In this document: one piece after another, positions 2,891 to 57,094 of the stretch
Numbering within the stretch: the stretch's first letter is position 1
Layout of the letters: every line of letters starts with the position of its first letter
IMG/VR virus record: IMGVR_UViG_2864804954_000001
Span: 46,193 to 110,192 of that record
Length of the DNA stretch: 64,000 bases
Reading direction: 5' to 3' (one strand)
Source: a virus
Taxonomy: Duplodnaviria > Heunggongvirae > Uroviricota > Caudoviricetes
Notes under the pieces: generated by a model
Databases searched by the model: none
What the model saw: the letters and a program-made list of their open reading frames with translations, nothing else
What the model was told of the DNA's origin: nothing
Position numbers and translations under genes: made by a program

Positions 2891-2914
2891 AAAGTCACCG
2901 CTGACTTACTTTTA
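2891..2914. promoter_or_regulatory. palindromic element PAL
   Basis: AAAGTCACCGCTGACTTACTTTTA, about 100 nt upstream of MCP. Confidence 0.5.
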
Positions 2915-2922
2915 TAAGGAAG

Positions 2923-3801
2923 TTAGGCTTTTTGTTTCAATAGAGCGTTTAAGCCCGCTTGAATCTTTTCCTGACCTGTAAGGGCTTTCGGTGGGGTGTT
3001 GAGGTTTTGACCTTTAGGTGTCGAGATAGAACCTGCACCTTGTTTAACTTTGGATTTGATCAAGTGATCTTTTTCAGGGTCGGCTTCGATGATCTTGCGC
3101 ATTGCTTCATCAAAACTTACCGTTTGACCGTAGGCGTCTACGATCGCTGTGCGGTTTGCTTCGCCACGCGGCTTGTCATAGCCAACTACTTTTCCATCTT
3201 CAATTTCGAAGTGTTCGCCGTACAATGCGCGGGCTTTGGCAGGTGGCAACACCAACTCACCAGTAACAAACTCAGATTGGCTAAATTGAGTGCCAACCGT
3301 TAAGTCGCTGATGCGTTGTTCAGACGCGCCTTTTGCACCTTTAAGGTCTGCAATTTCCTGCTGCAGCTTGGCAACTTCCGCTTTGTGTTGATCTGCCATG
3401 CTTTGCTTCACGCGTTCGTATTCGCCACGATCTTCAAGAGCTTTAACTTCGGCAGCTTTTTTGTCAGCCAACACTTGACGGACTTCAGCTAAGTCCAAGT
3501 CACCGATGCTTTCACGTAATGCTGCTTCTGCTTCTTTTGCTTTTTTCGCAGCTTCCTTGTGCTTCATTACGTCTTTAAGCAATGCCGCTTCTTTGTCGGT
3601 CAACGAACCTTCTGCTTTTGGTGGAGCTGTCGCAGGGTTTGCTTCGCCACCTTCTGCACCTGAGCCAGTGCCAGCGTTTTCTTCAGCGCCCTCTGCAGGA
3701 GTTGGAGCTTGACCACCAGCGCCACCTAAATCACCACCCTCACCATCGGCAGGGTTAGATAGGTGTCCACCATTCGTTAAAAGTTGCATCCATAAAGGCA
3801 T
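2923..3801 (-). CDS. scaffolding protein (292 aa)
   Basis: Gly/Ala-rich N-terminus then a long charged coiled-coil (KEAAKKAKEAEAALRE...). Located between portal and MCP. Confidence 0.55.
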   Translation of the reverse strand: MPLWMQLLTNGGHLSNPADGEGGDLGGAGGQAPTPAEGAEENAGTGSGAEGGEANPATAPPKAEGSLTDKEAALLKDVMKHKEAAKKAKEAEAALRESIGDLDLAEVRQVLADKKAAEVKALEDRGEYERVKQSMADQHKAEVAKLQQEIADLKGAKGASEQRISDLTVGTQFSQSEFVTGELVLPPAKARALYGEHFEIEDGKVVGYDKPRGEANRTAIVDAYGQTVSFDEAMRKIIEADPEKDHLIKSKVKQGAGSISTPKGQNLNTPPKALTGQEKIQAGLNALLKQKA

Positions 3802-3841
3802 ATTCAGTTCCTTGCTATTCTCTTAGCTGTTGAGCCGACGA

Positions 3842-5539
3842 TCACTTGTCGGCTGTATTTTTGGTTACTTGACCTTGGCGTTTGTTTTTGACTGCCTTGG
3901 CTTCAGTGTTTCCTTGTGGGTCTTTCGCTTTCGCGTCAGTTTGGGCGGCGCCTGGATTGGTTGACGTTGTGTTCGTCAGCTTCCCTGCGTTGTTGTTGTC
4001 AGTTAGACGGTTGGCAAGCTCAATCGGATCTACAGGCCATTCTTTTAACTCACTGACCATCTTCGCTTTCAGGTCTTTGGCGAGTTGTGGGAACAACTTG
4101 TCGATGATTGATTCCATTTGATGACGACGAATCGTTTCAGGCGCATCAATCAGCATCAGACGTGCCGCGATGTCGAACTCGTCATATAAGCCGCGTGTGT
4201 CGAAGTTGTCAGGGTAAGAAATGAACTCATTTGCCCCTTCTTCTTTTTCGCCATGCCACTTGAGGACAAGTCGAGAAATCTGTTCTTCAACCCACTCTAG
4301 GGAATCCGACTTCGCACAGAGCAATGCGTTTACTCGCTCGAAATCGTATGCCTTCGCAACACCGCTTGAGTTATCAATACCCACCGCGTTGTCTTGCTTG
4401 GTGCGCTCCCCTGCTAAACCTACCGTGTGATAAATTTCACCCACGATCTTGTTTACAGCGGTAATGATGAGATCAGCCTGCTTCACGTCTGGAGAGAGGA
4501 AGAATGGCGTTCCACCTTCTCCGTCATACAAGAAGATACGGCTAGTACCCATCTCGATGAGCTTGGCGTGCGTGTCGTCGCCTGGCAGTACATTCTGCGC
4601 AGGCATCGCCAACTGACTGAATGTTTGATCTTGAATGATGGCATCCAAGTTTGAGAGGTAGTTAGCTACCGCTCGGTCGAGGTACGCAATGTCGTCGATC
4701 ATCGCGGGCGCCTCATATTCTTCATCGCCAATCATGTGATCGGCCAGAATTACAGGCACTTCACCTAAGCCGTGATTGTCACTGCCGATTTTGACGATCT
4801 GTGTCTTCTTGGTTGTGCCAATACGCTTTTCTTCGTACAGCGTCCAATCTAACTTCGTCCAAAGGCGATAACGATGGATGGGTTCACCTGTCGAACCAAA
4901 CGGATCTGAATCGTCTCGTCCAATTTCGTGAATCAACACCCACTGAAGGCGTCCTTCGTCGTCAAATGAGTAATCAAGCAACTGTTGTGGCCCAACAATG
5001 TAGGCATAGGCTTTCATGCCTGCCTTCTTCTCATCAGCCCGAGTTTTCACCTCCAACCCATCTTTAGGCTGGCTCATGTCCACCACAATGCCTACGCGTC
5101 CGTACTGTGAGGTTCGCTTGCTCACTTGACGCATAAAGTCATCAATGGTTAGACCGTTGCGTGTTGCTCGTTTCCAAAATCCTTGCAATGCTTCAGGCGA
5201 ATCTTTGACGTTGCGCGTGATGGACTGCTTGAATAGGTACTTGTTGATGAGGTCTACAACTTCGCGGGTATGGTTGAAGCGGTAGGCGCGTTTTAAACGA
5301 TCGCCATACTCTTTGTCGCCTTCCTTGATGTAGCGGAAGACATTTGTTTCAAACCACTCGCGACCGCCCTCATAGGTTGCTTGCATGAAGTTCCAGTGAG
5401 GGAGTTGTTGCTTGTACTTCGGGTGACGTCGCTCAACGAATTTGCGTAAACGCTTCTGCTCATCCCCACCGACTGTACTGCCACTTCCTGTCGCAGTTAC
5501 GGGGTTGATGACTTGCGTTTCTCCTTGCTTTAATGGCAT
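3842..5539 (-). CDS. portal protein (565 aa)
   Basis: Size and position directly downstream of TerL. Basic, unstructured C-terminus. Confidence 0.65.
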   Translation of the reverse strand: MPLKQGETQVINPVTATGSGSTVGGDEQKRLRKFVERRHPKYKQQLPHWNFMQATYEGGREWFETNVFRYIKEGDKEYGDRLKRAYRFNHTREVVDLINKYLFKQSITRNVKDSPEALQGFWKRATRNGLTIDDFMRQVSKRTSQYGRVGIVVDMSQPKDGLEVKTRADEKKAGMKAYAYIVGPQQLLDYSFDDEGRLQWVLIHEIGRDDSDPFGSTGEPIHRYRLWTKLDWTLYEEKRIGTTKKTQIVKIGSDNHGLGEVPVILADHMIGDEEYEAPAMIDDIAYLDRAVANYLSNLDAIIQDQTFSQLAMPAQNVLPGDDTHAKLIEMGTSRIFLYDGEGGTPFFLSPDVKQADLIITAVNKIVGEIYHTVGLAGERTKQDNAVGIDNSSGVAKAYDFERVNALLCAKSDSLEWVEEQISRLVLKWHGEKEEGANEFISYPDNFDTRGLYDEFDIAARLMLIDAPETIRRHQMESIIDKLFPQLAKDLKAKMVSELKEWPVDPIELANRLTDNNNAGKLTNTTSTNPGAAQTDAKAKDPQGNTEAKAVKNKRQGQVTKNTADK

Positions 5540-5555
5540 GGTCGTCCTTGATTTA

Positions 5556-5580
5556 GTAAGTCACGGGTGACTTACTTTTT
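5556..5580. promoter_or_regulatory. palindromic element PAL (perfect 9-bp arms)
   Basis: GTAAGTCAC-GG-GTGACTTAC-TTTTT between terL stop and portal start, 18 nt from the portal ATG. Confidence 0.5.
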
Positions 5581-5585: not shown

Positions 5586-6830
5586 CTAAATGGAAATACC
5601 ACCAATTTCAAGTTTGCGAACAGGAAATTCCAACTCGATGCAATATCCCGCTGCATCGGCTGAGTGTTCTACGCCTGCGTCTTTATCGACGTCGCGACTT
5701 CCTGGCTTGTAGATGGTCTGCTCGAATGAGTTAATGAGGTGCTTGCAGGATTCGTCGATGCGCAAACGGATTTTGCCGTCCGCTGATCTAAGCATCCTGT
5801 TCACCGCATTGACGCGGTCGGCAATTGGTGGGTGCTTTTTGCGGTTCTTGATTCGGACAAAGCCCTTCTCCCGCATGATGTCCAAGTCGGTCTCACCCCT
5901 TGCGTGTTGACGCTGACCACTCGCAGGGTCAGGATAGATCACGACTTGTCGTTGGTATTTCCACAGCTTCTCGTCCAACGCATCGCAGATTTCCTGCGTG
6001 TTTGAACCGTACTGCACGATCTCATCAACCGCCCAAACTTCACCATTCGGCTGAGGTTGGAAAATGACGGTACTCATTGGGTCAATGTTGAAGTCCATCC
6101 CCACCCAAATTGGCAGAGCTGGATTGAACTTGTATTTCCCGACGTGTTCGTCACGGTCAAAGGCGTAGTACACACGTCCACTCATTGTCTCGAACGAAGC
6201 AAGGAACTCCTGCTTGAACGATTTGTCGTCCATATCGGCTTTCGCTGCTGCGATCTCCGACAATGGAATGAACGGTGAGGTGATGGTTGGAAACTGCCAT
6301 GACTCCCATTGGCCTGTCCGCAGCTTGTGTGGGTCTTTGCCTTGTTTGTAAACAGAGTAAAGACAGTTGTAAGCCTTCGGTGTCCCAATGAAGATGGCGT
6401 GACCACCAGTGTCGGCAAGCGTCGGTCGCAATACTTTGGTCCAAGTGTCTTCGTCCATGTCTTGATATTCATCAAGTACAAGGAAGTTGATACCTACACC
6501 ACGTAAGGAATCGGCTTTATCCGCACCTTTGAGTTCGATGCGCGAACCATTAACCAAACGAACGGTTAAGTTCGATTCATTGATCTTGGCAATCCAGGCA
6601 CGGGGAATTGCGTCGAGTAACGCAAGCCACATGATCTGCTTTGCCATTTTGTAGGTTGGCGCAACGTACCAAATCAACTGCTTTGGCTTTTGCGCTTTAG
6701 AGATCATCAGCACTTTGGAGAGCTGCGTCTTGCCCCAACGACGACCCGCTACGACACAGCGAAAACGAGCCTTCGATTGGTACACTTCCATTTGCTTAGG
6801 GTGTAATGCGAGCTTTTCCTTTAGTCCCAT
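5586..6830 (-). CDS. terL: terminase large subunit (414 aa)
   Basis: Walker A VVAGRRWGKT near the N-terminus and a Walker B-like LVLDE. C-terminal nuclease-like acidic residues. Confidence 0.8.
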   Translation of the reverse strand: MGLKEKLALHPKQMEVYQSKARFRCVVAGRRWGKTQLSKVLMISKAQKPKQLIWYVAPTYKMAKQIMWLALLDAIPRAWIAKINESNLTVRLVNGSRIELKGADKADSLRGVGINFLVLDEYQDMDEDTWTKVLRPTLADTGGHAIFIGTPKAYNCLYSVYKQGKDPHKLRTGQWESWQFPTITSPFIPLSEIAAAKADMDDKSFKQEFLASFETMSGRVYYAFDRDEHVGKYKFNPALPIWVGMDFNIDPMSTVIFQPQPNGEVWAVDEIVQYGSNTQEICDALDEKLWKYQRQVVIYPDPASGQRQHARGETDLDIMREKGFVRIKNRKKHPPIADRVNAVNRMLRSADGKIRLRIDESCKHLINSFEQTIYKPGSRDVDKDAGVEHSADAAGYCIELEFPVRKLEIGGISI

Positions 6831-6840: not shown

Positions 6841-7443
6841 TTATGCAGTTGGTTGAGGGTCTTGGACTGCTTCGCCTTCTGGCATTTCAACCAACTCCTC
6901 TTGGAAGTCGTTGAAATCTCGGTTGCGTAAGTCCTCGATTTGATCTGCGGTCAATTCTTCGATCACCAGTGCTGGCAATTCGTTGGTATCGACTGCATCA
7001 GGTCGGTCAAGACCTAAGATCGCCCACCGCTCTTGACGAGCTTTTGAGATAACATTGACGGCAGCTTCAATTGCCTTAAGGTTGGATTGAGCAACGGACA
7101 GTGGCGAACCATCCTTCTTGCATTTCGAGAGTTCTTCCCACGCTAGGCGCGCAAGATGAGCGGACATCTTGTAATGCTCATCTTTCGTTTCCTTAATGCG
7201 CTGCGCGTAAATGGCTGCGTCTGCTGATGCTGCGTCCGTAACTTGTTCGGCAATCCGTTTCCGATGTTCTTCTGCTCTTGACCCGCGAACCACGCCACGT
7301 TTTTTCATGTGGAGTGATACTGCGGTGGGTGACACATCAAGCTTTTTGGCGATCTCGTCCCGTGTAGCTTCGCCTAATTCCCATAGGGCTTCCGCTTCAG
7401 CCCACTGTTTAGGCTTCGGCAGGGTTTTCTTTTCGGTAGTCAT
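6841..7443 (-). CDS. terS: terminase small subunit (200 aa)
   Basis: HTH (DEIAKKLDVSPTAVSLHMKKRG) at the N-terminus. Immediately upstream of terL. Acidic C-terminus. Confidence 0.55.
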   Translation of the reverse strand: MTTEKKTLPKPKQWAEAEALWELGEATRDEIAKKLDVSPTAVSLHMKKRGVVRGSRAEEHRKRIAEQVTDAASADAAIYAQRIKETKDEHYKMSAHLARLAWEELSKCKKDGSPLSVAQSNLKAIEAAVNVISKARQERWAILGLDRPDAVDTNELPALVIEELTADQIEDLRNRDFNDFQEELVEMPEGEAVQDPQPTA

Positions 7444-7543: not shown

Positions 7544-7568
7544 AAGTCACCGCTGACTTACTTTTATG
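7544..7568. promoter_or_regulatory. palindromic element PAL
   Basis: CAAGTCACCGCTGACTTACTTTTAT upstream of terS. Overlaps TTGACT -35-like hexamer. Confidence 0.5.
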
Positions 7569-7956
7569 TGTGGTATGCCAAGACGTACCATAGCGCACAA
7601 GACAGAGCCAGTGCTTCGGTATCGAATGGGATTGTCAGATGATGCTCATCGTTGAATACAAACGAAGCGATGAACATTGGTGAGTATTCTTCCCCACGTT
7701 TACGCTTCACAAAATCAATCGACGGGAAAATAAGAGGGTCTAGCCCGATGCGTTGCAGTTCAGGCATTGTGGCGTCAATATCACCACAGTAATCAGGAGC
7801 AATTGAGCAGCCGAACTGTTCGCTTCGTACCGCCTGATCGTCGAGCATGTGAGTGTTAAAACCGAGGAGGTAATCAATTTCTGAATTGGCTTGTGCGCCT
7901 GGGGAGAAGTCGTCCCCGATGATTAGAACTTCGTGTTCCGTAGTTGACTTGGGCAT
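7564..7956 (-). CDS. hypothetical protein (130 aa)
   Basis: ORF with RBS GCAAGG. Preceded by the 45-bp promoter-like repeat R2 and palindromic element. Confidence 0.45.
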   Translation of the reverse strand: MPKSTTEHEVLIIGDDFSPGAQANSEIDYLLGFNTHMLDDQAVRSEQFGCSIAPDYCGDIDATMPELQRIGLDPLIFPSIDFVKRKRGEEYSPMFIASFVFNDEHHLTIPFDTEALALSCALWYVLAYHT

Positions 7957-7983: not shown

Positions 7984-8008
7984 AAGTAAGTCACGGATGA
8001 CTATATTA
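7984..8008. promoter_or_regulatory. palindromic element PAL
   Basis: TAAGTAAGTCACGGATGACTATATT, between repeat R2 and the gene 7956 start. Confidence 0.45.
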
Positions 8009-11178: not shown

Positions 11179-11820
11179 TTAATCCTTTAGCAATAGGTGT
11201 ACGAGTGCATCGCCTGCGTTGGTCATACTGTCCGAATCGTCGAAACCTTGAACCTTAATGGTCTTTTCGATGATTTGAGTTACCGCATCTACGTCCTTGA
11301 GCGGCACTTTGAATCGCATAACTTGGTGAGTTTGCACAGCTTTTTCATTGGGCAAATCATCTTCATCTTCAGGCAATGCCAAAGAGTCTAGTTCTTCCAA
11401 CGCTATACTTGAGTTAGTAAAGACCGAATCTAAATCCTCAATCGAAAGTGGCATTACAGCGATCAAGTCTTTGTAGTCACCAAGCGATTCGAGAATTTCG
11501 GCCAACTTGAAGGAATCGTCTTCACCAAAGCGACCGTTATCGACCAAGCTAATTTCTTTTGCTTTGCGATCATCAAGGATGCCGAGGTTTACGATTGGAA
11601 TCGAAGTTAAGCCAAGACGTTGTGCGATTTCAGCGCGGTGTTCACCGCCAATAATTTGAAGCGTCCCATCCAAGAGTTCGCGAACAATTACAGGCTTGAA
11701 CATGCCATAACGCTTGATGCTTTCTTCGAGTTTTGCATCGTTGTCGGGAGACACGATGTTGGAGTTCCAGGGGTTAGGAACGAGTGAGTCAGGATGTACC
11801 TGAGTGGTTTGGTATGTCAT
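11179..11820 (-). CDS. ParB-like domain protein (213 aa)
   Basis: ParB N-domain motif GGEHRAEIAQRLGLTSIPIV and PNPWNSN. Second ParB-like paralog. Confidence 0.55.
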   Translation of the reverse strand: MTYQTTQVHPDSLVPNPWNSNIVSPDNDAKLEESIKRYGMFKPVIVRELLDGTLQIIGGEHRAEIAQRLGLTSIPIVNLGILDDRKAKEISLVDNGRFGEDDSFKLAEILESLGDYKDLIAVMPLSIEDLDSVFTNSSIALEELDSLALPEDEDDLPNEKAVQTHQVMRFKVPLKDVDAVTQIIEKTIKVQGFDDSDSMTNAGDALVHLLLKD

Positions 11821-11833: not shown

Positions 11834-11858
11834 TAAAGTAAGTCACGGGTGACTATAC
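11834..11858. promoter_or_regulatory. palindromic element PAL in divergent intergenic region
   Basis: TAAAGTAAGTCACGGGTGACTATAC. 14 nt from the minus-strand ATG, 42 nt from the plus-strand helicase ATG. Confidence 0.5.
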
Positions 11859-11899: not shown

Positions 11900-13621
11900 A
11901 TGACAGAAGTAGTAACCATTGCTTACAACGCAATTAATGCGAAATTGCACAACCCATCGGTAGATGCAAAACTCGCGGTTCAAGCCGTGCTGTCATACAA
12001 GGTCGATGGGTCAGAGCATTCACTGGCTTACAAACAACATAAATGGGACGGTCGTTCATCATTCTTTGAGTACAAGACCGCATCATTCCCAGCGGGTTTC
12101 GTTCACTACGTCGCTGCCAATTTGCGCAAGAAAGGTTTTGAGGTTCGCTTGGCGCGTAAACCAATGCCTGAACCTTTGGGTCCTGAACGTCCAGAAGTTG
12201 ACGCATTCGGCTATGTGGAGAAATACGACTATCAGCCACAGACTGTTGATCGCTTGGTGAAGTACGGCCAGATGATCGCTCAGGTCGCCACAGGTGGTGG
12301 TAAGAGCCGCATTGCACGTATGGCATTCCTTCGCATTGGTCGCCCTACCCTATTCCTTACTACACGCTCAATCCTGATGTACCAAATGAAGGATACTTTC
12401 GAGAAGGACTTGGGCGTGCCGTGTTCGGTGTTTGGTGACGGTCAGTTTGGTGAGACCAACGCTGCAGGACAAACCTCAGTGAAGCGCATGTCGGTTGGCA
12501 TGGTGCAGACCTTCTCGTCAAAACTTGAAGTGCCATCATTCGAGGTGGAGTTTCAAGTGCTTTACGAGGCGGTTACCAAAAAGTTTGAGGCTGAAGCAAA
12601 GGGTTTAACGTCGGAACTGAAGAAAGACGGCTTGCCACAGACCATCATCAAGAAGCGCATCGAGCAGCTTGCCGCCAAACAGCAGGCAGCCCTTAAAAAG
12701 AATGCACCCGCAATGAAGGCAAAAGCTGAGGCGAAGGTCAAAGAGAAAGAGACTGAACGCCAAAAGACCATCAAGCTACTTTCCATGTTTGAGTTTGTGA
12801 TCTTGGAAGAAGCACACGAAGCGTCAGGCAATTCGTACTATGACATTCTGCGTCACTGTGTTAATGCCAATTACCGTCTTGCTTTAACTGCTACACCGTT
12901 CATGAAGGACAGCGAAGAAAGCAATATGCGCTTAATGGCATGTAGCGGTTCAATCGGTATTAAGGTTACAGAGAAGATGTTGATTGATCGTGGCATTCTC
13001 GCAACGCCTTACTTCAAGATTGTCCAACTGCAGCGTAAGCCTGAGAAATTGATGCGTGGCACATCTTGGCAGTCTGCGTACCGCATTGGCGTGAAGGAGA
13101 ATGAAGAACGTAACCTGTCGCTTGTGGCTGAGGTCAAACGCGGTCAGAAGTATGGCTTAACTGCAATGGTGTTGGTGCAACATACGGCTCACGGTGAGCA
13201 TGTTGTGGAACAGTTGAACAAGCATGGTGTCCGTGCTGAGTTTATCTCGGGCGATTCTACACAGCCCGAACGCAAACGTGCCTTACAGCGTTTAGCCGAT
13301 GGTGAGACTGATGCGCTTGTGGGTACCACAATCCTTGATGTAGGTGTGGACGTTCCCGCAGTCGGCATGGTGATTCTTGCAGGTGGCGGCAAAGCAGAGG
13401 TTGCCATGCGTCAGCGTATTGGTCGTGGTCTGCGTGCCAAGAAGACTGGTCCAAACGTAGCATTCGTGGTTGACTTCTCCGATCACTGGAACAGTCATAC
13501 CGACGGTCATGCCAAGCAGCGTCTTGAGATCATCCAGTCTACGCCAGGATTTGCAGAGAACATCGTCCGTGATTTTGACTTCAAATCTTTAGGCTTCAGC
13601 GAAGTGGCAAAAGCTGCATAA
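11900..13621 (+). CDS. SF2 DNA helicase, UvsW/type III restriction-res-like (573 aa)
   Basis: Walker A TGGGKSRIA, DEAH-like box ILEEAHEASG, motif III TATPF, C-terminal helicase domain (FISGDS, GTTILDVGVDVP, RQRIGRGLR). Only sizeable plus-strand gene. Confidence 0.7.
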   Translation: MTEVVTIAYNAINAKLHNPSVDAKLAVQAVLSYKVDGSEHSLAYKQHKWDGRSSFFEYKTASFPAGFVHYVAANLRKKGFEVRLARKPMPEPLGPERPEVDAFGYVEKYDYQPQTVDRLVKYGQMIAQVATGGGKSRIARMAFLRIGRPTLFLTTRSILMYQMKDTFEKDLGVPCSVFGDGQFGETNAAGQTSVKRMSVGMVQTFSSKLEVPSFEVEFQVLYEAVTKKFEAEAKGLTSELKKDGLPQTIIKKRIEQLAAKQQAALKKNAPAMKAKAEAKVKEKETERQKTIKLLSMFEFVILEEAHEASGNSYYDILRHCVNANYRLALTATPFMKDSEESNMRLMACSGSIGIKVTEKMLIDRGILATPYFKIVQLQRKPEKLMRGTSWQSAYRIGVKENEERNLSLVAEVKRGQKYGLTAMVLVQHTAHGEHVVEQLNKHGVRAEFISGDSTQPERKRALQRLADGETDALVGTTILDVGVDVPAVGMVILAGGGKAEVAMRQRIGRGLRAKKTGPNVAFVVDFSDHWNSHTDGHAKQRLEIIQSTPGFAENIVRDFDFKSLGFSEVAKAA

Positions 13622-13697: not shown

Positions 13698-14003
13698 ATG
13701 AATGACAAGTTTGTGCCGCTAGAGGCAAGCGAGTTCTATCGCAACAAAGGCTTAAAGCGCGTTTCGGTCACTTTGACTGATGGCACAATTGCCTTTCTTG
13801 AGGACAAGCGTCAAGAGTTCAGCGCAATCAAGACCACCAAGCAAGGTGATGTTGTGGATGCGCTAGTTGCCACTTATCTTGACAACCCACAGTTTGCAGC
13901 TGCCGTAGACGAAACCTTACGCAACATCCTTGATCAGAAGGTGATGCAGAAGATGGGTCGCAAAGAAGGTTGGCGCAAAGACAAGTCGGATGACTCGAAG
14001 TAA
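13698..14003 (+). CDS. hypothetical protein (101 aa)
   Basis: Plus-strand ORF downstream of the helicase, followed by a terminator. Confidence 0.45.
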   Translation: MNDKFVPLEASEFYRNKGLKRVSVTLTDGTIAFLEDKRQEFSAIKTTKQGDVVDALVATYLDNPQFAAAVDETLRNILDQKVMQKMGRKEGWRKDKSDDSK

Positions 14004-14019
14004 CCCTCTCAGATCACAC

Positions 14020-14047
14020 AGAACGCTCCATGTGAGCGTTTTTTTAC
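14020..14047 (+). terminator. intrinsic terminator of plus-strand island
   Basis: AACGCTC-catgt-GAGCGTT followed by TTTTTTT. Confidence 0.6.
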
Positions 14048-14257
14048 GCTTATAGTTTGCTAGACAGTGCTTTGCTGTAACGTGTGAAATTGCGCAGCTC
14101 AGAGCCATATACGACGTTTTGCGATCTTACACGTACAGTCAGAGGCTTGCGTAAAGTTGATTTTGATGTATGATGAACCCAAACGAGTGTAGTGACTTGT
14201 TTGACCTGTAAAAGCTCAGTCGGAAACGATTGGGCTTTTGCTTTTTTCTGTATGCTA

Positions 14258-14342
14258 ATTTTCCCAAATACCCACCCCTCTTTTTCCTCCCATCCTCCCA
14301 AGTTCCCAAATTGGTAACTCCCCAAATTCCAATCTTCCCAAG
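14258..14342. repeat. strand-biased C-rich tract with CCCAA(G/A)TT units
   Basis: TTCCCAAATACCCACCCCTCTTTTTCCTCCCATCCTCCCAAGTTCCCAAATTGG...CCCCAAATTCCAATCTTCCCAAGG. Related CCCAAGTT units occur in R1-R3. Confidence 0.4.
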
Positions 14343-14642
14343 GCTGAACGCGTGCCGCATCTTGCCCTGTGCCGATGTTTGGCGATCTGTCGTTGGAAGT
14401 ATAAGGACAAGGTATCCACCACCCCATCCTGGAAATATAAGGAGGTCGTCGGAGGTCGGAGATTGAGGAAGGCTATGCACACGAAGGTTCGCGAAATTCC
14501 TAAGACTTCGCTTGTATATTATTTGATCAATTGATTCAGGTCTTGCTTAGTGTGTCGCGTCGCGTCGCGTGTTGCATCATCACTACATAGAAAAAAGCAT
14601 AGTGCTTTATACACTATGCTCTATATTGCGTTGTAATGCGTT

Positions 14643-15287
14643 TTAAGCTGCTGCTACTGCGTCGTCGTTGATGTTTAGCATGTTTAAGAAAATCTCACTG
14701 TGAGCGCTATCTTTGAAGCTTATAGCGTCGTCTTTTTTACCTTTTTCAACATGACACACATCGAGAAGCATTAACATCATGCGCGTGCTGCTGCTTTGCG
14801 TTTCAGCGGTTGACGGTGCAGTATTTTTATAGACTTTGATTTGTTTCAATTCGTCTAGTTTGAAGCTGTCTGTATTTTCGTTGACAATGTTAGCAGACAA
14901 GCAGCGCTCACACTCAAAGACAGTCAATGACTTATTAACTAGCAAATTGCGAACAATTGAGAACGTGTAACCGTCTAGTTTACGCGCGTTATTTTGCGCT
15001 ACTGCTGTCAATAGTTGACGAATTTTAGTGATCACTTTTACAGCAACGAATTTTTCGCTGTCTTTGTCGTTGATCGCAAAGTTTACTAAATCGTCGAGTT
15101 TTAAACCTTTTTTGATGCACAAGTCGATCATAGCTAAACCGCTTGCAGACGCGAAAGATTTAAGGTCGGTGCGCAATGTTTTGCATTCTTTACCTGTTAT
15201 ACCTTCGTGTAACGGTAAACGTATTTCGATCGCTTCAACGATAGCTTTTTGTAGTTTAGTTGCTTTTGCAGACGCTTTAGTAGTCAT
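14643..15287 (-). CDS. hypothetical early protein (214 aa)
   Basis: ORF preceded by promoter copy A (TTGCAT-16-TATTAT) and the conserved leader. Confidence 0.5.
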   Translation of the reverse strand: MTTKASAKATKLQKAIVEAIEIRLPLHEGITGKECKTLRTDLKSFASASGLAMIDLCIKKGLKLDDLVNFAINDKDSEKFVAVKVITKIRQLLTAVAQNNARKLDGYTFSIVRNLLVNKSLTVFECERCLSANIVNENTDSFKLDELKQIKVYKNTAPSTAETQSSSTRMMLMLLDVCHVEKGKKDDAISFKDSAHSEIFLNMLNINDDAVAAA

Positions 15288-15348
15288 GATGTATATACCT
15301 TATGTAGTGAGTGTTTAACCGTTTATCGAACCGTGTTTTGTGTTCTTC

Positions 15349-15390
15349 GTTTCGATAAAGCTATAATAGCAGATTTAAGTATTGATGCAA
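15349..15390 (-). promoter_or_regulatory. sigma70-like early promoter plus conserved leader (copy A)
   Basis: Minus strand reads TTGCAT-16 nt-TATTAT-AGCTTTATCGAAACGAAGAACAC. About 90 percent identical to copy B over roughly 100 bp. Confidence 0.55.
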
Positions 15391-15427
15391 CACTTATTTT
15401 ATAAATATTGCATCAAGTGTTCATTAT

Positions 15428-15817
15428 TTAAGCGGTTGCTTTAAGTGCTTTTTTCGCTGCTTTTTCGCGCTGCTTTTCTTCGTGCGCTGCAATCTCAGCA
15501 AAGAACAAGCGCAATAAGTCATGTTGTGAAATATTTAAGATTTTTTCAGCGTCGAACAAATTAAAACGGTACTCATCGAGCGAAGATACAACTCTCGCGA
15601 CAAAGGTTAAAAAATCACCTTCTGTTAATTCAGTCTTGACAAGCGCAAGCGTTGCAATTGTCTTTTTCAAGTTTTTAGCAATTACCTTTTTGCTTGTTTC
15701 GTCTTCAATTGAAAATTGAACCTCAAAGTGCTGTTTTGACGTGTACACGTCAAAAGTTATTTGAACAAGCGGTGTAGCGGTTGAAGCGATAAATTTCTGT
15801 TTTGCTAAAATTTGCAT
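15428..15817 (-). CDS. hypothetical early protein (129 aa)
   Basis: ORF preceded by promoter copy B. Confidence 0.5.
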   Translation of the reverse strand: MQILAKQKFIASTATPLVQITFDVYTSKQHFEVQFSIEDETSKKVIAKNLKKTIATLALVKTELTEGDFLTFVARVVSSLDEYRFNLFDAEKILNISQHDLLRLFFAEIAAHEEKQREKAAKKALKATA

Positions 15818-15870
15818 TTTTAAAACCTTATGTAGTGAGTTTGACCATCGAACCGCGTTTTGTGCATCTC

Positions 15871-15912
15871 GTTTCGATAAAGCTATAATAACAGATTTAA
15901 GTATTGATGCAA
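15871..15912 (-). promoter_or_regulatory. sigma70-like early promoter plus conserved leader (copy B)
   Basis: TTGCAT-16-TATTAT-AGCTTTATCGAAACGAGATGCAC on minus strand. Confidence 0.55.
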
Positions 15913-16184
15913 CATATAATTTTAATTATTTTTTGTTTGATCACTGATTATTCAATCAATTTTATTTGCAAAAATAACTATTGATTCAATATTTAAACTA
16001 TGTTACTCGCACGCACGCGCTCATTTATATGCAGTCAAAACTATACCGCTTGAATGCTGGAAATTTCGGGGTGGGAAATGGCTGTTTTTTGATGATTTTT
16101 TGACCGCACCTGACCGACGCACCAAGGACGCACCAAGGCGATTTCCAGGTCGGAGGTGGAGACTAATGGCGATGGCTCGTTAGG

Positions 16185-16290
16185 GGCAGGCGCTTTAGGA
16201 AAAATGTCAGCCCGCCCAAGGACTTTGAAGGCGCATGTTGGTGCAGGCGCTTTTAGGAAATAGTCAGCTCGCCCAAGGGTTTCTCGTTAG
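16185..16290. repeat. tandem 46-bp direct repeats
   Basis: GCAGGCGCTTTAGGAAAAATGTCAGCCCGCCCAAGGACTTTGAAGG and GCAGGCGCTTTTAGGAAATAGTCAGCTCGCCCAAGGGTTTCTCG. A third diverged copy lies at 18535-18580. Confidence 0.5.
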
Positions 16291-16902: not shown

Positions 16903-16926
16903 TTCGTTTAACTCTATGTGTTGTTC

Positions 16927-16960: not shown

Positions 16961-16994
16961 GCTTACTACACTAGGCGTAGGGTAGATGCAGATA

Positions 16995-18312: not shown

Positions 18313-18319
18313 TGTTAAA

Positions 18320-44064: not shown

Positions 44065-44090
44065 TATAGTAAGTCACCTATGACTTACTA
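44065..44090. promoter_or_regulatory. palindromic element PAL upstream of nrdA
   Basis: TATAGTAAGTCACCTATGACTTACTA, 30 nt upstream of the nrdA ATG. Confidence 0.45.
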
Positions 44091-45410: not shown

Positions 45411-45433
45411 TATAGTCACCGCTGACTTACTTT
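45411..45433. promoter_or_regulatory. palindromic element PAL
   Basis: TATAGTCACCGCTGACTTACTTT upstream of gene 44556-45380. Confidence 0.5.
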
Positions 45434-46908: not shown

Positions 46909-46936
46909 ATTGCTATTTTAGTGACTTACTTTGTAG
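46909..46936. promoter_or_regulatory. degenerate PAL half-site
   Basis: TAGTGACTTACTTTG...TATCACCGCT. Only the right arm is conserved. Confidence 0.3.
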
Positions 46937-48863
46937 TATCACCGCTCACGACGGATTGACCGCCTTTTTTCTGCACAACAATGACTTGGTCGATGTAGTC
47001 TCGGAGTTCATTGTGAGAAATCACCAGGACTGTGCCACGCTCACGCGCTTTACGTTCCAACACACCCATCAATCGCTCGATGCCTGCTTCATCAAGAGCG
47101 TCGTCAATTTCATCACCAATGAACAATTGAATCGGCTTTGTTGCGCGTGATGCCACCAAGTCTTGCAGTGCCAATGCGGTTGCAAGGCGCACCTTACGCT
47201 TTTCACCGCCTGACAACCCTGCGAAGCTGTCAGAGCCACAATCGTTCGTGACCGCAATGGAGAACTTCTCTTTCAACTCACCTTTGGCAGTCGTTGTCAG
47301 TGTGGTCCACGTTGCGTGAATGTTGCCATCAGATAGCGCACCCAAGTAGTCGCGTGTACGATCATTCAAAAATGGCGTCACAGTATCAAGGATGTGCGCA
47401 CGGACACCACCCTGACCATACACGCCCACCGCTGCGGTATGCAGATCAACAAGCTCATTGGCTTTTTCAAACATAGCTTCAAGTTCAGTGTGCTTCGTCT
47501 TTAAGGCGTCAAGTGTCTCTTGGATTTTCTTCACTGAATCGGTGAATGGGTTTGCTTCATTGTAAAGTTCGTTCGCAACCTTCTTGATGCCTTCGATGTT
47601 GCTCTTGTGCATGTCAATTTTGGTTTTTACACCTTCCAATGAGCTGAGTGCATTCTCAATGGTACGCACTTTGTTGGTGAGTTCGATAACATCTACCGTC
47701 GGAGCGTCTTTAGCAATCTGCTCCAACTCTTTTGCTTCCGCTAACTTAGCATCAGCGGTCGCTTTCAACTGCTTGGCTTCTGCTGCGCTGCTTTCTGCTG
47801 CTGTACGCTTTGCGGTTCGCGCTGCTTCAATGTCATGATCACAAATCGTTTTGCCGCATTCTTTACAGCCTGTACCAACAAGCGATGTGATGGTTTTGAT
47901 CTCTGCAACTTGACCGCGAACCGAGCTAAGCTTGTGGTCGTAGTCTCGCTGCAGGAGTTGTGCTTCGTGATTGGCTTTCTTCCAAGCGTCGCTCTTGTCT
48001 TGAGCTGCTTTGTTGGTGTCTTTTGCGGAAGCGATTGCTGCCTCCAAACGCGATTTTCCACCAAGCAGGGCAGACTCGTCGAATTTGGCTTTGTGATCTT
48101 CTGCCGCCTTGATCGCTTCCTGTTCATGGAGTACGCCAGCAAGTTTGGCTTTAACGCGGTCGCGCTTGGTTTCATCGAACTCTTTCTCTTTTTGTTGTGT
48201 ATCTTCGAGGTTTTTTGATGTGAGGTGAATGCGGTCGATCGCCAATTGCAATGCGCTTTTGATTTCGTCCGCTTTGAGTTTTTCAGTCTTCAGTTTGGCT
48301 CTTGCGATCTCATGTGCCTTCTCAAGCATCTGAACACCCGCAGCCTCCTCAATGAGTACCTTTAAGAATTTGTCGGTCATTGCAGGCAAGTCCGGCATCT
48401 TCTCCTGACCCGCATAGATGGATGACGTGAACACATCATAAGAACAACCCAAGATCGTGTTGACAACCTCTTGCGTTTCCTTGTCTGTGCCTTTCGTCAA
48501 CGACGTTTCGACCGTGCCCATTGAATCGAGTTTGTCAACAAGCAATGCGTTCTTGTTGGTGCTATGTTTGCGGTGACGCGTCACGCGGTAGACCGCGCCA
48601 TCATCTTCAATCAATACTTGACCGATACACTCTTTTTTGGCTGTGCGGTTGACGACTGCGTCACCTGTAATGCCACGCGCTGTGACGCCATGCAGCACCC
48701 AACACAAACCATCGACGATAGAGGACTTGCCCGCACCGTTTGATTTAGCGGAGCTGTCTTGTTCGTTCTCGCCTTGAATCAGGATGAGCCCTCGATCAGC
48801 CAAGTCAATTGCGGCCTTGCCGATGGTAAGGAAGTTTTGTAAATCAAGTTCTAAAAATCGCAT
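46926..48863 (-). CDS. SbcC/Rad50-like ATPase, T4 gp46-like (645 aa)
   Basis: Walker A NGAGKSSI, long coiled-coil with a CxxC zinc hook (GCKECGKTIC), signature LSGGEKRKVRLA, Walker B LFIGDEIDDALD. Confidence 0.75.
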   Translation of the reverse strand: MRFLELDLQNFLTIGKAAIDLADRGLILIQGENEQDSSAKSNGAGKSSIVDGLCWVLHGVTARGITGDAVVNRTAKKECIGQVLIEDDGAVYRVTRHRKHSTNKNALLVDKLDSMGTVETSLTKGTDKETQEVVNTILGCSYDVFTSSIYAGQEKMPDLPAMTDKFLKVLIEEAAGVQMLEKAHEIARAKLKTEKLKADEIKSALQLAIDRIHLTSKNLEDTQQKEKEFDETKRDRVKAKLAGVLHEQEAIKAAEDHKAKFDESALLGGKSRLEAAIASAKDTNKAAQDKSDAWKKANHEAQLLQRDYDHKLSSVRGQVAEIKTITSLVGTGCKECGKTICDHDIEAARTAKRTAAESSAAEAKQLKATADAKLAEAKELEQIAKDAPTVDVIELTNKVRTIENALSSLEGVKTKIDMHKSNIEGIKKVANELYNEANPFTDSVKKIQETLDALKTKHTELEAMFEKANELVDLHTAAVGVYGQGGVRAHILDTVTPFLNDRTRDYLGALSDGNIHATWTTLTTTAKGELKEKFSIAVTNDCGSDSFAGLSGGEKRKVRLATALALQDLVASRATKPIQLFIGDEIDDALDEAGIERLMGVLERKARERGTVLVISHNELRDYIDQVIVVQKKGGQSVVSGDTTK

Positions 48864-50185: not shown

Positions 50186-50210
50186 GTTAAGTCACCCATA
50201 ACTTACTTAT
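50186..50210. promoter_or_regulatory. palindromic element PAL upstream of sbcD-like gene
   Basis: GTTAAGTCACCCATAACTTACTTAT followed (minus sense) by TATAAT-ACGCTCGAAACGCAC. Confidence 0.45.
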
Positions 50211-50620
50211 TCTGGGTAGTTTTTAGGTTTGTAGTACACATGCCCACCGACACGACCAAGTGATGTAAAATCATGTCGCCATTTCGGACGTGTGGATGGG
50301 GTGTGGAAGTTGCTCACATTGCGGTACTTCGTAGGTACATCAAGTGAGCCGCCCAGTGCCTTGCGAGCGATCATTTGGCATTCCTCCCACGTGTCTTGTT
50401 CTTGCGGTTTTCCTGCAGGACGTAATGTTCTGCCGACAACTAAGTGCTTTGTCCAACTGAACTGCGAGGGTCTCATAACTTCGGCACAGACATTGCTATT
50501 GTTGTCTCTTGCGCGGTTAATGGTTGTTTGTGCAATGATTTTTTTGCCTAGCTCTGGTTCACCACGTCCTTCATGGTAAATGTTCAAAGCTAGGCAGGTC
50601 AGCGCGGTTGAAAGTATCAT
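50207..50620 (-). CDS. SleB/CwlJ-type cell-wall hydrolase, putative endolysin (137 aa)
   Basis: ALNIYHEGRGEP...TINRAR...CAEVMRPSQFSW matches the Hydrolase_2 family. Start set at MILSTAL. Confidence 0.5.
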   Translation of the reverse strand: MILSTALTCLALNIYHEGRGEPELGKKIIAQTTINRARDNNSNVCAEVMRPSQFSWTKHLVVGRTLRPAGKPQEQDTWEECQMIARKALGGSLDVPTKYRNVSNFHTPSTRPKWRHDFTSLGRVGGHVYYKPKNYPE

Positions 50621-50621
50621 T

Positions 50622-50828
50622 TTAGGGTCTAACTCCTCGTTGAATCTTTCGCACAGCGTTGTGCCAATTCCTCGCTGCGTGACTGCATGACGGAGAGCCT
50701 GGGACGGGTAATGTGTACCCATTTGGTGACTTTAGAACGACATGGTTGCCACCTCGACGGTAGGACCAGCCATTTTTGATGAGGGATTGCGCTGTGCTTT
50801 GGATTGATTTGTCGTTTGATAATCGCAT
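50622..50828 (-). CDS. HicA/YcfA-like small protein (68 aa)
   Basis: LIKNGWSYRRGGNHVVLKSPNGYTLPVPG matches the HicA G(S/G)(S/N)H...P.G...VP pattern. Confidence 0.35.
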   Translation of the reverse strand: MRLSNDKSIQSTAQSLIKNGWSYRRGGNHVVLKSPNGYTLPVPGSPSCSHAARNWHNAVRKIQRGVRP

Positions 50829-50885: not shown

Positions 50886-50913
50886 AAGTAAGTTACTGGT
50901 GACTTACTTTTAT
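50886..50913. promoter_or_regulatory. palindromic element PAL
   Basis: TAAGTAAGTTACTGGTGACTTACTTTTA upstream of the 50828/50620 operon. Confidence 0.45.
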
Positions 50914-52588: not shown

Positions 52589-53037
52589 GCTCCAAAGTTA
52601 GCGTAAGTTTCTTGTTCCAGTGTCAACTTTGCCTCGCGCACTTCTTCTGCCATAGCGATAGACTTGTTGATGTTTTCAATAAACAGGCGAAGTTGATCTT
52701 CTTTGTAAATTGCGGAACGAATATGGTTAGCAATGTCGAGATTGGCTTCATCTGTACCGTCGCAGTCGATAGTGACTTCTACTAAAGGGTCTCCTGTAGT
52801 TACCCAGCCCTTTTTTGCATAGTCATCCCAAAGCTCGTTGTGCTTTTCGGCCGAGTCACTCAGGCTCTCAAACGTATGGATTTTGGCTACTTCAGCACCA
52901 AAACATTCAGCCATCAAAAAGATGCCAAGCACCTGATTGTCGAAGCAGACAAGGTGTCTTGCAGGAACGGTCGATTCAAGAATGAACTCGGACACAATTA
53001 CGTCAAAATGATGTCGTTTCATTACCAAGCCGCCCAT
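52579..53037 (-). CDS. tandem-array protein 4 with C-terminal ...TYANFGAWS (152 aa)
   Basis: Same tail and junction. Confidence 0.5.
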   Translation of the reverse strand: MGGLVMKRHHFDVIVSEFILESTVPARHLVCFDNQVLGIFLMAECFGAEVAKIHTFESLSDSAEKHNELWDDYAKKGWVTTGDPLVEVTIDCDGTDEANLDIANHIRSAIYKEDQLRLFIENINKSIAMAEEVREAKLTLEQETYANFGAWS

Positions 53038-56076: not shown

Positions 56077-56090
56077 ACATATTCCCCTCT

Positions 56091-56119
56091 AAAGAAAAGC
56101 CACCGCAAGGGTGGCTGTT
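56091..56119 (-). terminator. intrinsic terminator after SSB-like gene
   Basis: Minus: AGCCACC-cttgc-GGTGGCT then TTTTCTTT. Confidence 0.5.
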
Positions 56120-56140
56120 CTAGTTGCGCTCAGTCAGCGA

Positions 56141-56968
56141 TTAACCCGCTGCGTCCAATTCTGCAAAGATGTCGTTAAGATCGGAATCTAACGCCACTTC
56201 TGCAACTGTTGAGCGAGAGGCTTCGGCTGCGCGAGAGGTTTCATGCACTTCGATCGCTTCTGCTGAAGGGGCAGCAATCGCTTTCGTTTCAGGAGTTGCA
56301 GCAGGCAATAAGCCAACTACACCTTTCACCGCACCGATGGCACGTTGCATGTTTTCTTCATTCTCTTGGCGAACGTATTCGTCAAGATCGTTCAGGCGAC
56401 TCAAGATTGAAGCATCAAGAGGATGCTTGTTCATTGTTGGCTGAACGCTGTATTTTGTATTCAAACCTTTACCTTCGCGGACAACCTTAATGATGATCGG
56501 CTCTTGAGGGTCGAACATTGCTGCACCCCAATCTTCCATCAGGTCAAGGATTTGACCAAAGACTGTTTTGCGAATTTCGAAGATTTGTGGATCAACTTTG
56601 TTTTCGCCATCTAAAGTGATGACGTTTAACAAGAATGATTGACCAGAGTTTGCATCTTTCAATGCCTTGATTTGCTCGTCATCAGTTACGCTTTGAGACG
56701 CTTGGCTGATTGCCTGACAAACAGGACAAGGTTTATTGAATGTCTTATCAAGACAAGGGTAAACAGCTTGCAATTCGCCTGCTGTGTTTTTGACATAGTG
56801 TTGACCAAAGTCGTGGAAGAAAATTTCTTCTTGACCTTTACGCCATCCTGGCAATAACACAATACGGTTCACGCCATCCTTTGGCTTCACCGTTTTCGCA
56901 CGTTGTTTGATTGCTTCTTGTTTAGACTTTGCCGCTGCTAAGATTTTGTCGATTGCTGCGTTACTCAT
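56141..56968 (-). CDS. gp32-like ssDNA-binding protein (275 aa)
   Basis: RIVLLPGW...FFHDFGQHYVKN...YPCLDKTFNKPCPVCQ parallels the T4 gp32 Zn-binding core (H, C, C, C). Acidic C-terminal tail. Confidence 0.5.
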   Translation of the reverse strand: MSNAAIDKILAAAKSKQEAIKQRAKTVKPKDGVNRIVLLPGWRKGQEEIFFHDFGQHYVKNTAGELQAVYPCLDKTFNKPCPVCQAISQASQSVTDDEQIKALKDANSGQSFLLNVITLDGENKVDPQIFEIRKTVFGQILDLMEDWGAAMFDPQEPIIIKVVREGKGLNTKYSVQPTMNKHPLDASILSRLNDLDEYVRQENEENMQRAIGAVKGVVGLLPAATPETKAIAAPSAEAIEVHETSRAAEASRSTVAEVALDSDLNDIFAELDAAG

Positions 56969-57069
56969 GGGTTTAATCCTTTTTGGTTTGTGTCGTTTGA
57001 CGTTTCAAGTTTTAAGTTCGAGGACTTGTTGACTAAGTGATTTCGAGTTACTTAGTCAACGATTGAAAG

Positions 57070-57094
57070 TATAGTCACGGGTGACTTACTTTTC
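57070..57094. promoter_or_regulatory. palindromic element PAL upstream of SSB-like gene
   Basis: TATAGTCACGGGTGACTTACTTTTC. Confidence 0.5.

Follow-up and report, generated by a model that had tools for sequence, protein, structure and literature searches.

A 14-bp dyad repeated at the gene junctions of a phage-plasmid-like genome and its candidate reader, a phage-encoded Xre-type protein

A short palindrome recurs between the genes of the virus record IMGVR_UViG_2864804954_000001 (Caudoviricetes), and the question raised by this repetition is which molecule reads the palindrome and what the reading would achieve. The window analyzed here is a stretch of 64,000 nucleotides, positions 46,193 to 110,192 of that record; coordinates given without a locus name refer to it, and loci from other contigs are designated by L numbers. 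An original prediction, made from the letters of the window, had counted about 18 copies, one of them a half site, and had proposed that they are recognition sites for a phage transcription regulator or for a sigma-like protein encoded at 62555-63211 on the minus strand, or alternatively a conserved RNA stem-loop. Here we observed that the palindrome recurs in related genomes, and the comparison points to a small phage-encoded protein with a helix-turn-helix (HTH) of the Xre/Cro-C1 type as the best candidate binder.

The repeated palindrome is real and not a product of chance. Chance levels were taken from 100 dinucleotide-preserving shuffles, none of which contained more than two matches. The motif AGTCACNNGTGACT, allowing up to one mismatch, matches the window 16 times compared to 0.20 expected, and not one of the 100 shuffles reached 16. 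A position weight matrix (PWM) built from the window copies yielded 17 strong sites, adding a two-mismatch copy at 50190-50203. Together with a half site at 46921-46932, the window contains 17 full dyads and one half site, at positions within a few bases of those listed originally. The dyad core comprises 14 bp, AGTCA-N4-TGACT, and thus two 5-bp half sites with their centers 9 bp apart. All 17 strong dyads are intergenic, as had been claimed, or fall at the very end of small, doubtful open reading frames (ORFs), in a window of which ORFs occupy about 91% and non-coding DNA about 9%. An extra one-mismatch match at 52764-52777 lies inside an ORF, lacks the flanks described below and is probably due to chance.

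Most of the called ORFs (85/97) are on the minus strand, hereafter the gene strand, on which the consensus reads ttaaAAgtA-AGTCA-cCgG-TGACT-ta..tt. AT-rich flanks stretch the dyad to about 26 bp, and the better conserved of the two is the upstream AAAAGTA, the downstream flank being weaker. The original description of an invariant flank was too strong, whereas the flank itself is genuine: TGACTTACTTTT occurs 10 times at up to one mismatch compared to 0.46 expected, and is exact in seven copies. The polarity shared by the copies also proved real. On the gene strand the dyad center is GCGG in six copies and CCCG in five, versus the inverted CCGC in one. The distance to the next start codon, previously given as 5-125 nt, ranges from 5 to 168 nt at 17 sites and reaches 322 nt at 23043. 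The dyads are closer to the stop codons upstream, from which about 11 of the 18 sites are only -1 to 30 nt away. They are clustered at 1.6-11.9 kb among head and packaging genes and at 33.6-57.1 kb among genes of replication and nucleotide metabolism. Between these lies the accessory region (14-33 kb), in which 22 gaps measure 35 nt or more and only two weak dyads occur; for this reason it may be regulated differently from the rest of the genome. This region (14000-33500) comprises many small ORFs.

What kind of genome carries these sites? A Megablast search of the window against a collection of deposited phages identified no close DNA relative, and relatives were reached via protein comparison. 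The DnaE protein of the window (1148 amino acids; gene 58326-61772) is 67% identical to DnaE of non-mobilizable Acinetobacter baumannii plasmids of about 108 kb, and 36-42% identical to DnaE of SSU5, Rhizobium phage RHEph10, Pseudomonas phage nickie, and others. According to precomputed Pfam matches for an identical gene, this DnaE carries a C-terminal uracil-DNA-glycosylase-like domain (PF03167). The A. baumannii plasmid NZ_CP140432.1 and the window share their gene order, including terminase, portal, capsid, tail, RepB, DnaB, primase, ligase, ParA/resolvase, HTH regulator, CobT-like, CobS-like, DnaE, SSB, RecA-like recombinase, SbcCD, and NrdAB. The window belongs to a phage-plasmid with relatives among the AB_1 type of Acinetobacter and the SSU5 type; NZ_CP140432.1 appears to fit the AB_1 type named in the literature, an assignment that is ours. 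The DNA past the window end (locus L177) comes from a Logan contig, 110,906 bp in length, which matches the window over 10.6 kb with 100% identity. Scans of the window, as well as of 18.2-19.0 kb separately, gave no tRNA and no Rfam family.

The dyad is a property of the family and not only of this genome. Scanning viral contigs with AAAGTAAGTCANNNNTGACT gave 95 loci, many of which contain three to six copies of AGTCA-N4-TGACT per approximately 10 kb at a GC content between 42 and 68%. Homologues of window proteins are encoded in 39 of the 95 loci, often at the same junctions, for example next to the capsid gene or replication genes. In relatives the dyad is present at 20-35 copies per genome at syntenic gene junctions, and positions before CobT, between CobT and CobS, and after DnaE are occupied across lineages. 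The 108-kb A. baumannii plasmid has 33 copies at up to one mismatch with the consensus aAAaAATC-AGTCA-sTAC-TGACT-gA.ttt, which are oriented along the genes. Its one divergent spot is the HTH regulator gene, where two copies are opposed, each pointing towards its gene.

Center and flanks are specific to each lineage compared, which argues for a reader encoded by the phage rather than by the host. The site takes the form GTC-A(G/A)TCA-ATAT-TGACT in RHEph10, ATT-AGTAA-GCAC-TTACT in a second Acinetobacter lineage (the L113 group), TCT-AGTAA-N4-T(G/T)ACT-AGA in L107, and TA(A/G)GTAAGTRCTTAC(T/C)TA in SSU5, where about 20 copies occupy the same kinds of junctions, for example terminase/portal and CobT/CobS. 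Two of the SSU5 variant dyads fill perfect TTGAAA-17-TATGAT or TATCAT promoters. The second Acinetobacter phage-plasmid lineage (L113-L116, L119-L125, and L141) has the same synteny and a DnaE identity of 66-70%, without any AGTCA sites; its site is AGTAAGCACTTACT, and the recognition helix of its Xre homologue is altered to GINQ-NMVSFIVRG. The host factors IHF, CRP, LexA, Fis, TyrR, sigma28, and sigma54 were considered as readers, and none of them fits the dyad.

Is the palindrome read as duplex DNA or as a folded strand? The changes that it tolerates bear directly on this. C4>A, G2>A, and their mirror images occur one arm at a time, and the half-site variants AGTAA and AATCA are seen independently on either arm. 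Among distinct sites at loci with more than one variant, the arm combinations are C/G in 48, C/T in 15, A/G in 12, and A/T in 12, so that 27 sites have non-complementary arms compared to 12 that are doubly changed and complementary. Because the half sites vary independently, they are best understood as two equivalent halves read on duplex DNA by a dimer, and not as a hairpin. The dyad thus probably represents a double-stranded DNA site for a dimeric binder rather than an RNA or DNA hairpin. Its dyad symmetry, half-site centers 9 bp apart, and variable center correspond to the geometry of operators bound by Xre/Cro-C1 dimers.

These data also bear on the earlier idea of an RNA stem-loop, which would act in a 3' trailer or 5' leader as a signal for processing, stabilization, or protein binding. 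The position of many dyads right past stop codons would suit such a role, as would their transcription in sense orientation, the appearance of hairpins in minimum-free-energy folds (with z down to -8.9 for the best copy), and terminator-like hairpins after some copies. However, the stem sequence is invariant in genomes of 42-68% GC without covariation, so that the maintenance of pairing by compensatory changes typical of structured RNA was not observed. Hybrid arms, which would place A.G or C.U mismatches mid-stem, are common; single mismatches on the sense strand are mostly not compatible with G.U pairing; and several copies, as RNA, form a stem of only 5 bp with -4.8 kcal/mol and z about -2. 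Moreover, the copy at 11841, located in a divergent gap, is symmetric for both directions, and no copy has a match in Rfam. Terminator-like hairpins follow 4 of the 18 window sites and 6 of the 33 A. baumannii sites, and precede 3 A. baumannii sites. Being found beside few sites, they are not part of the element. We therefore consider an RNA stem-loop very unlikely.

The original prediction had also argued against a terminator, and this was borne out, given that the gene strand lacks the U-run of an intrinsic terminator. A terminator for antisense, plus-strand transcription has in its favor that TACTTTT comes after the dyad when the plus strand is read, and that the copy at 5555-5576 passes a terminator scan. 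Yet this was the only copy flagged among the seven in the scanned 1-20 kb, on the antisense strand; in most copies the stem ends before TAC, and the T-run thus does not adjoin it. The T-run is absent in GC-rich relatives, and terminators need structure rather than a conserved sequence. An antisense terminator can hardly be credited at all.

If the dyad is a DNA site, its position relative to promoters becomes informative. Promoters were called by scans for sigma70-type hexamers and by PWM, so that all matches reported here are at the level of the consensus. As the original prediction had noticed, several dyads overlap -35-like or -10-like hexamers, and they do so in two preferred registers. 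In the spacer register, comprising eight window sites, the -10 hexamer starts at dyad position 13 or 14, and the dyad lies inside the 17-bp spacer. On the minus strand, examples are the dyad at 57073-57086 within TTGAAA (57096-57091)-17-TATACT (57073-57068), upstream of the gene for a gp32-like SSB; the dyad at 18860-18873 within TTGCCA-17-TATCAT, ahead of a conserved non-coding block; and the dyad at 1657-1670, the center of which is inverted compared to most copies, within TTGTAA (1679-1674)-17-TATCAT (1656-1651). In the -35 register, comprising five window sites, the -35 hexamer overlaps or abuts the right end of the dyad. Here the examples, likewise on the minus strand, are 41523-41536, which abuts the -35 of TTTACA-17-TAAAAT and is followed by a terminator-like hairpin; 7545-7558, the end of which overlaps the -35 of TTGACT-17-TATCCT upstream of a small-terminase-like gene (6841-7443); and 2893-2906, which abuts the -35 of TTTACA (2893-2888)-17-TAGGAT (2870-2865) upstream of the major capsid gene (1890-2792).

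Both registers extend beyond the window. When the best promoter was determined for each of 246 distinct sites, 64 of which scored highly, the -10 hexamer began at position 13-14 in 19/64 and at position 35-38 in 9/64. In the A. baumannii plasmid, three TGATT variants of the right arm thereby make TTGACA, TTGACT, or TTGATC, and in the Azospirillum locus L182 (68% GC), TTGACC-17-TAGGGT and TTGACA-17-TATACA are positioned in the same two registers. The capsid gene is preceded by one and the same layout (site, -35, 17 nt, -10, second site or half site) in L026, L028, the A. baumannii plasmid, and the window, despite divergence of the sequence around it. In the window the second site is the degenerate half site TCGGTGACTAGAG at 2844-2856 (minus strand), directly downstream of the capsid-gene promoter, at a position where L028 and L032 have a full palindrome. 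Two sites upstream of the capsid gene are also present in L032, L061, and L095. A protein centered near -19, as in the spacer register, would be expected to occlude RNA polymerase, and one centered near -41.5 could either occlude or activate it.

The A-rich upstream flank was itself considered as a general -10 hexamer that would place the dyad over +1. This fitted the AT-rich genomes and some capsid promoters, and it was rejected on two grounds. A conserved -35 is lacking 16-18 bp ahead of the flank hexamer, and at L182 (68% GC) most sites do not have the hexamer at all. As a third register only, the upstream flank as a -10 is possible.

The same hexamer matters for the sigma-like protein encoded at 62555-63211, the candidate of the original prediction. 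With host RNA polymerase carrying this protein, the element would be a promoter of a middle or late class. The protein weakly matches Sigma70_r2, a profile comparison pairs it with region 2.2-2.3 of sigma factors including RpoD, it matches a PHROG annotated as sigma factor, and its gene is located between CobS and DnaE, and thus beside dnaE, in many site-bearing lineages. Region 2 is the only part of a sigma factor detectable in it. In the A. baumannii relative, a separate protein of 113 amino acids carries an HTH similar to Sigma70_r4_2 (L096 13745-14086), and the two might form a split sigma or co-factor arrangement. The polarity of the conserved block along the gene direction would also fit a promoter, and so would the -10-like hexamer (xAxAxT) directly upstream of the dyad without a -35 upstream. 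Late promoters of T4, read with gp55, consist of a -10 only, and the upstream hexamer is reminiscent of them.

Against this proposal, a sigma factor reads an asymmetric pair of -35 and -10 elements about 23 bp apart, whereas the conserved core here consists of equivalent halves that vary independently, 9 bp apart. Most sites in L182 lack the -10-like hexamer on their upstream side, and some sites are only 4-16 nt ahead of a start codon. Nor does the motif co-occur with the sigma gene throughout. In SSU5, sites are present and no homologue of the sigma-like protein was detected; in the part of the L183 genome that was covered, the syntenic position between CobS and DnaE holds just a 56-amino-acid ORF, and this locus has about 14 matches at up to one mismatch (at least two of them inside ORFs); and in L185 a site accompanies an isolated Xre gene. 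A phage sigma promoter is, in our estimation, a quite improbable identity for the element, and the sigma-like protein is probably not the binder. What does find support in sequence comparison is the broader part of the original prediction, that the palindrome may be the recognition site of a regulator.

Which regulator would this be? The genome encodes an HTH protein of the Xre/Cro-C1 type, 135 amino acids in length, 3.6-4.0 kb past the window end. It was outside the candidates of the original prediction because its gene lies about 3.6 kb beyond the last letter of the window. The Xre gene is the first of a leftward operon that also encodes a tyrosine recombinase (resolvase) and ParA. Homologues are encoded at the same place in the A. 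baumannii plasmids, RHEph10 (gp041), L106, L182, L183, and others, so that a conserved Xre gene precedes the CobT-CobS-(sigma)-DnaE operon; the A. baumannii protein is WP_001107553.1. The homologues give matches to HTH_3 and HTH_19, of which only that of the L113 protein exceeds the Pfam threshold (36.1 bits, with a cut-off of 23). A profile of the family searched against the PDB finds 8bny, deposited as "immunity repressor" (E = 2e-4), and then C.BclI, C.AhdI, and 434 repressor. No S24 peptidase domain is detectable in the protein.

We consider the Xre-type protein the best candidate binder, and a better one than the sigma-like protein, based on the company that gene and site keep. For 21 of 24 distinct Xre variants, that of the window's own genome (L177) included, a site is found no more than 330 nt ahead of the gene, compared to 14% of random windows at the same loci. 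Four lineages were fetched blind from the protein alone, and in all four there were sites around the Xre gene. In L184, apparently the remnant of an integrated prophage, sites are found only in the phage part. In L185 an Xre homologue (2127-2679) stands alone among IS110 and DDE transposase genes on a 210-kb contig, with a one-mismatch dyad 112 nt upstream of it. The dyads beside the Xre gene are the imperfect ones, which is what autoregulation at lower affinity predicts. In L177, the two imperfect dyads in the gap from the Xre gene to CobT (5690-5900, 3.9-4.1 kb past the window end) face each other, whereas their counterparts in the A. baumannii plasmid are back to back; the facing pair may reflect convergent rather than divergent switch promoters.

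The protein and the site also match in their conservation. Hardly any variation is seen in the presumed recognition helix, (P)N-x-x-[STY]-M-x-[KR], among the 120 best database homologues, and in this it parallels the invariant half site. AGTAA is the sole half site in just two lineages, and these carry F (L113 group) or L (L109) instead of the helix Met. Exchange of this Met for F or L thus appears to track the AGTAA half site, which is suggestive with two such events.

Proteins with a ParB N-domain, encoded at 9.5-11.8 kb, are a further possibility, and would bind the sites in a silencing or partition network similar to that of KorB or parS. At least two ParB-like genes are conserved in the family, and the site at 11841 is directly upstream of one of them. 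KorB of RK2 binds 12 dispersed palindromes, a precedent that counts for this reading. However, no ParB gene is located beside the isolated pair of Xre gene and site in L185, the sites cluster at the Xre gene and not at the ParB genes, and polarity with transcription is unexpected for centromere sites. ParB-like binders have very little probability in our view, even less than a hairpin read as RNA.

We therefore return to the Xre-type protein and to what its binding would do. A dimer of the 135-amino-acid protein would bind the dyads, which lie on or against the predicted core promoters of almost every operon for replication, nucleotide metabolism, packaging, and head formation, and this one protein would silence the lytic program while the phage persists as a plasmid prophage. 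Weaker, imperfect copies at the Xre gene would allow the protein to regulate its own level. The polarity of flank and center would result from the directional promoter context of each dyad, and perhaps from common descent of promoter-operator cassettes. Copies at the putative promoters of nearly all lytic operons would allow one protein to hold the lytic program off. Many intergenic copies of one short site, as well as copies at the regulator's own gene, are the features of a dispersed-operator system, and both are found here. With slightly better than even confidence, we thus propose that the dyad is the operator of a phage-encoded Xre-type dimer able to hold off the lytic program of the plasmid prophage; both the identity of the binder and net repression are inferred from sequence.

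Several observations weigh against this proposal. SSU5 has about 20 variant sites and no detectable Xre homologue, so that its reader must be another protein or a highly diverged one. Specificity usually diversifies among immunity repressors, yet half site and recognition helix are conserved from Acinetobacter to Rhizobium and Azospirillum hosts, and such breadth would seem unusual for a lysogeny repressor. Polarity of flank and center is not needed by a symmetric dimer and is explained only indirectly. Part of the register signal is intrinsic to the motif, because TGACT resembles a -35 hexamer and the TA flank starts a -10 hexamer, and many sites, especially in the A. baumannii plasmid, are without a convincing sigma70 promoter nearby. 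Finally, activators such as CRP, or lambda cI at PRM, work from positions near -41.5; with the sites at the capsid, small terminase, and holin genes near -41.5, the sign of regulation may differ between the registers.

This last point leads to the alternative that the Xre dimer is a timing device, repressing early and replication promoters with its center near -19 and activating late promoters from near -41.5. Two preferred registers are indeed observed. The -35 register is found at the capsid (2893) and small-terminase (7545) promoters of the window and at the small-terminase (27976), capsid (32616), and holin (59090) genes of the A. baumannii plasmid, whereas the spacer register is found at SSB, CobS, thyX, and the window promoter at 37955 (of nrdB, according to the original prediction). 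Related controller proteins of restriction-modification (R-M) systems read AGTC boxes and both activate and repress, and the broad conservation of specificity would suit a core regulator better than an immunity factor. On the other hand, the assignment of genes to registers is not clean, in that the sites at 41523 and at A. baumannii 83972 do not belong to late genes. The Xre gene heads a plasmid-maintenance operon, and its protein should thus be present in lysogeny, when late genes are silent. In several lineages a second site lies over +1 of the capsid promoter, which is a repressing position, and the promoter calls are consensus matches only. We regard such a dual role as an unlikely but serious alternative to repression.

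An extension of the same idea would be that a supergroup of phage-plasmids and kindred siphoviruses, including AB_1-like, RHEph10-like, and other elements, with hosts from Acinetobacter to Rhizobium, Azospirillum, and a metagenome-assembled genome assigned to Methylobacter, shares one Xre master regulator, 20-35 dyads per genome, and a two-register switch with early genes off and late genes on. This is a speculative proposal, to which we attach rather low confidence. If it is true, a single protein would provide a temporal switch, and cross-immunity or cross-talk would be expected between very distant phage-plasmids.

The remaining window sites, on the minus strand unless stated otherwise, are distributed as follows. 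The most perfect dyad, with 9-bp arms, occupies the terminase/portal junction at 5559-5572, a junction that has a site in the A. baumannii plasmid and SSU5 as well. A dyad with one mismatch (7989-8002) is upstream of ORF 7564-7956. The near-symmetric dyad at 11841-11854, assigned to neither strand, lies in the divergent gap between a ParB-like gene (11179-11820, minus strand) and a helicase gene (11900-13621, plus strand), and both of its flanks fit the consensus. The accessory region contains the dyad with weak flanks at 23043-23056. The last base of the dyad starts a TATAAT hexamer at 33608-33621 and at 45414-45427, the latter with a strong terminator-like hairpin 6 nt downstream, and starts TATACT at 37955-37968, where a hairpin and T-run come next and the gene downstream is 36858-37949. 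At 38804-38817 the dyad is 8 nt upstream of a TATAAT hexamer. The dyad at 44072-44085 precedes gene 41697-44036 (nrdA according to the original prediction), homologues of which flank sites in related loci. The half site at 46921-46932, AAAGTAAGTCAC, overlaps the stop codon of 46926-48863. The two-mismatch dyad at 50190-50203 (AGTTATGGGTGACT on the gene strand) is upstream of a SbcD-like gene, and a one-mismatch dyad at 50891-50904 is upstream of 50207-50722.

Three further conserved elements were noted near the sites. The capsid-gene leader (2820-2856, minus strand) carries ATCGGTGAC(T)AGAG(C/A)GA(G/C)TTAG, which is conserved in L096, L028, L026, and L032 across otherwise diverged lineages. 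Downstream of the site at 18860, and preceded by the TTGCCA-17-TATCAT promoter with the dyad in its spacer, a non-coding block at 18640-18850 (minus strand) has a counterpart of conserved DNA sequence in the A. baumannii plasmid (L096 16850-17080). This counterpart is free of coding sequences, the shared blocks are TTTCGATAGGGGTGCGGTTTGCTTGGGTCG and GGGGGGTAAGGGGGGGCAGTTTC, and there is no match to Rfam or a tRNA; it could be a non-coding RNA or an origin-like element. Lastly, CTCGAAAY occurs 18 times compared to 5.8 expected, with 14 of the 18 on the gene strand. Its intergenic copies are located in hairpin loops of 5' leaders (32842, 38777, 41479, 46109, 50163, and 57040, minus strand), and some are followed by CCAACCAAAAAGGA and a start codon, also in gaps without the palindrome. 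CTCGAAAY looks like a second repeated leader module.

How does the proposed system compare to known ones? The closest in function appear to be the networks of P1 C1, mycobacteriophage L5 gp71, and phiC31, and the site geometry and protein family are of the 434/lambda Cro-CI type. The plasmid prophage P1 has one repressor, C1, with many operators scattered before lytic operons and its own gene. Dispersed operators before separate lytic operons and the regulator's own gene are likewise found here. By contrast, P1 operators are asymmetric, 17 bp long, and bound by a monomer of an unrelated protein, whereas here there is a 14-bp dyad with an Xre-type dimer as the candidate reader. Moreover, the late structural operons, which in P1 are served by the activator Lpa, carry the site here.

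In phage phiC31, conserved inverted repeats (CIRs) are bound by the c repressor. The two systems share an inverted repeat in many intergenic copies and at the repressor gene, and they differ in the sequence of the repeat, the protein family, the Gram-positive host of phiC31, and the relation to promoters. The "stoperators" of gp71 in mycobacteriophage L5, which Brown et al. are said to have described in 1997, resemble the present sites in being some 20-30 copies per genome, in short intergenic gaps and in one orientation relative to transcription. However, stoperators are asymmetric, 13 bp long, and diversify with immunity, whereas the dyad half site is conserved across distant hosts; and many copies of the dyad overlap promoter hexamers, whereas stoperators are inside operons.

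The dyad shares with the 434 and lambda Cro/CI operators a length of 14 bp, conserved outer bases with a variable center, a reader of the HTH_3 type, and weaker sites beside the regulator gene. There, six operators are located at one or two loci, compared to approximately 20-35 genome-wide here, and the candidate protein has no detectable S24 peptidase. Controller (C) proteins of R-M systems are small Xre-type dimers in which helix 3 reads AGTC, with the box consensus GACT..AGTC (PMC3351150). Of the proteins with solved structures, C.BclI and C.AhdI are among those nearest to the candidate binder, at weak similarity (E = 0.008-0.04), and C proteins act as concentration-dependent activators and repressors. 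C-boxes read GACT-N3-AGTC and form two adjacent operators at a single promoter, whereas AGTCA-N4-TGACT is found here as single dyads at many promoters; the tetranucleotides are the same, in opposite order. The dyad is thus not a C-box, and the parallel in AGTC reading is a suggestive one. Literature searches with six exact site strings matched no paper, and we found nothing on the motif in connection with SSU5, phage-plasmids, Acinetobacter, or operators, nor on how AB_1 and SSU5 phage-plasmids keep approximately 100 kb of lytic genes silent.

In conclusion, we report here a 14-bp dyad repeated at the gene junctions of a phage-plasmid-like genome and its relatives. According to the literature, clinical Acinetobacter and Enterobacteriaceae commonly harbor phage-plasmids of the AB_1 and SSU5 groups, which can bear resistance genes. 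One regulator whose defined site of 14 bp recurs at almost all lytic operons would provide a target for inducing, curing, or engineering these elements, and the dyad can serve as a marker of operon boundaries and putative promoters in hundreds of contigs that lack annotation. The conservation of both operator and recognition helix over a very wide host range appears to be an unusual trait. It poses the puzzle of why immunity specificity would not have diversified in this family as it has in lambdoid phages and Cluster A mycobacteriophages.

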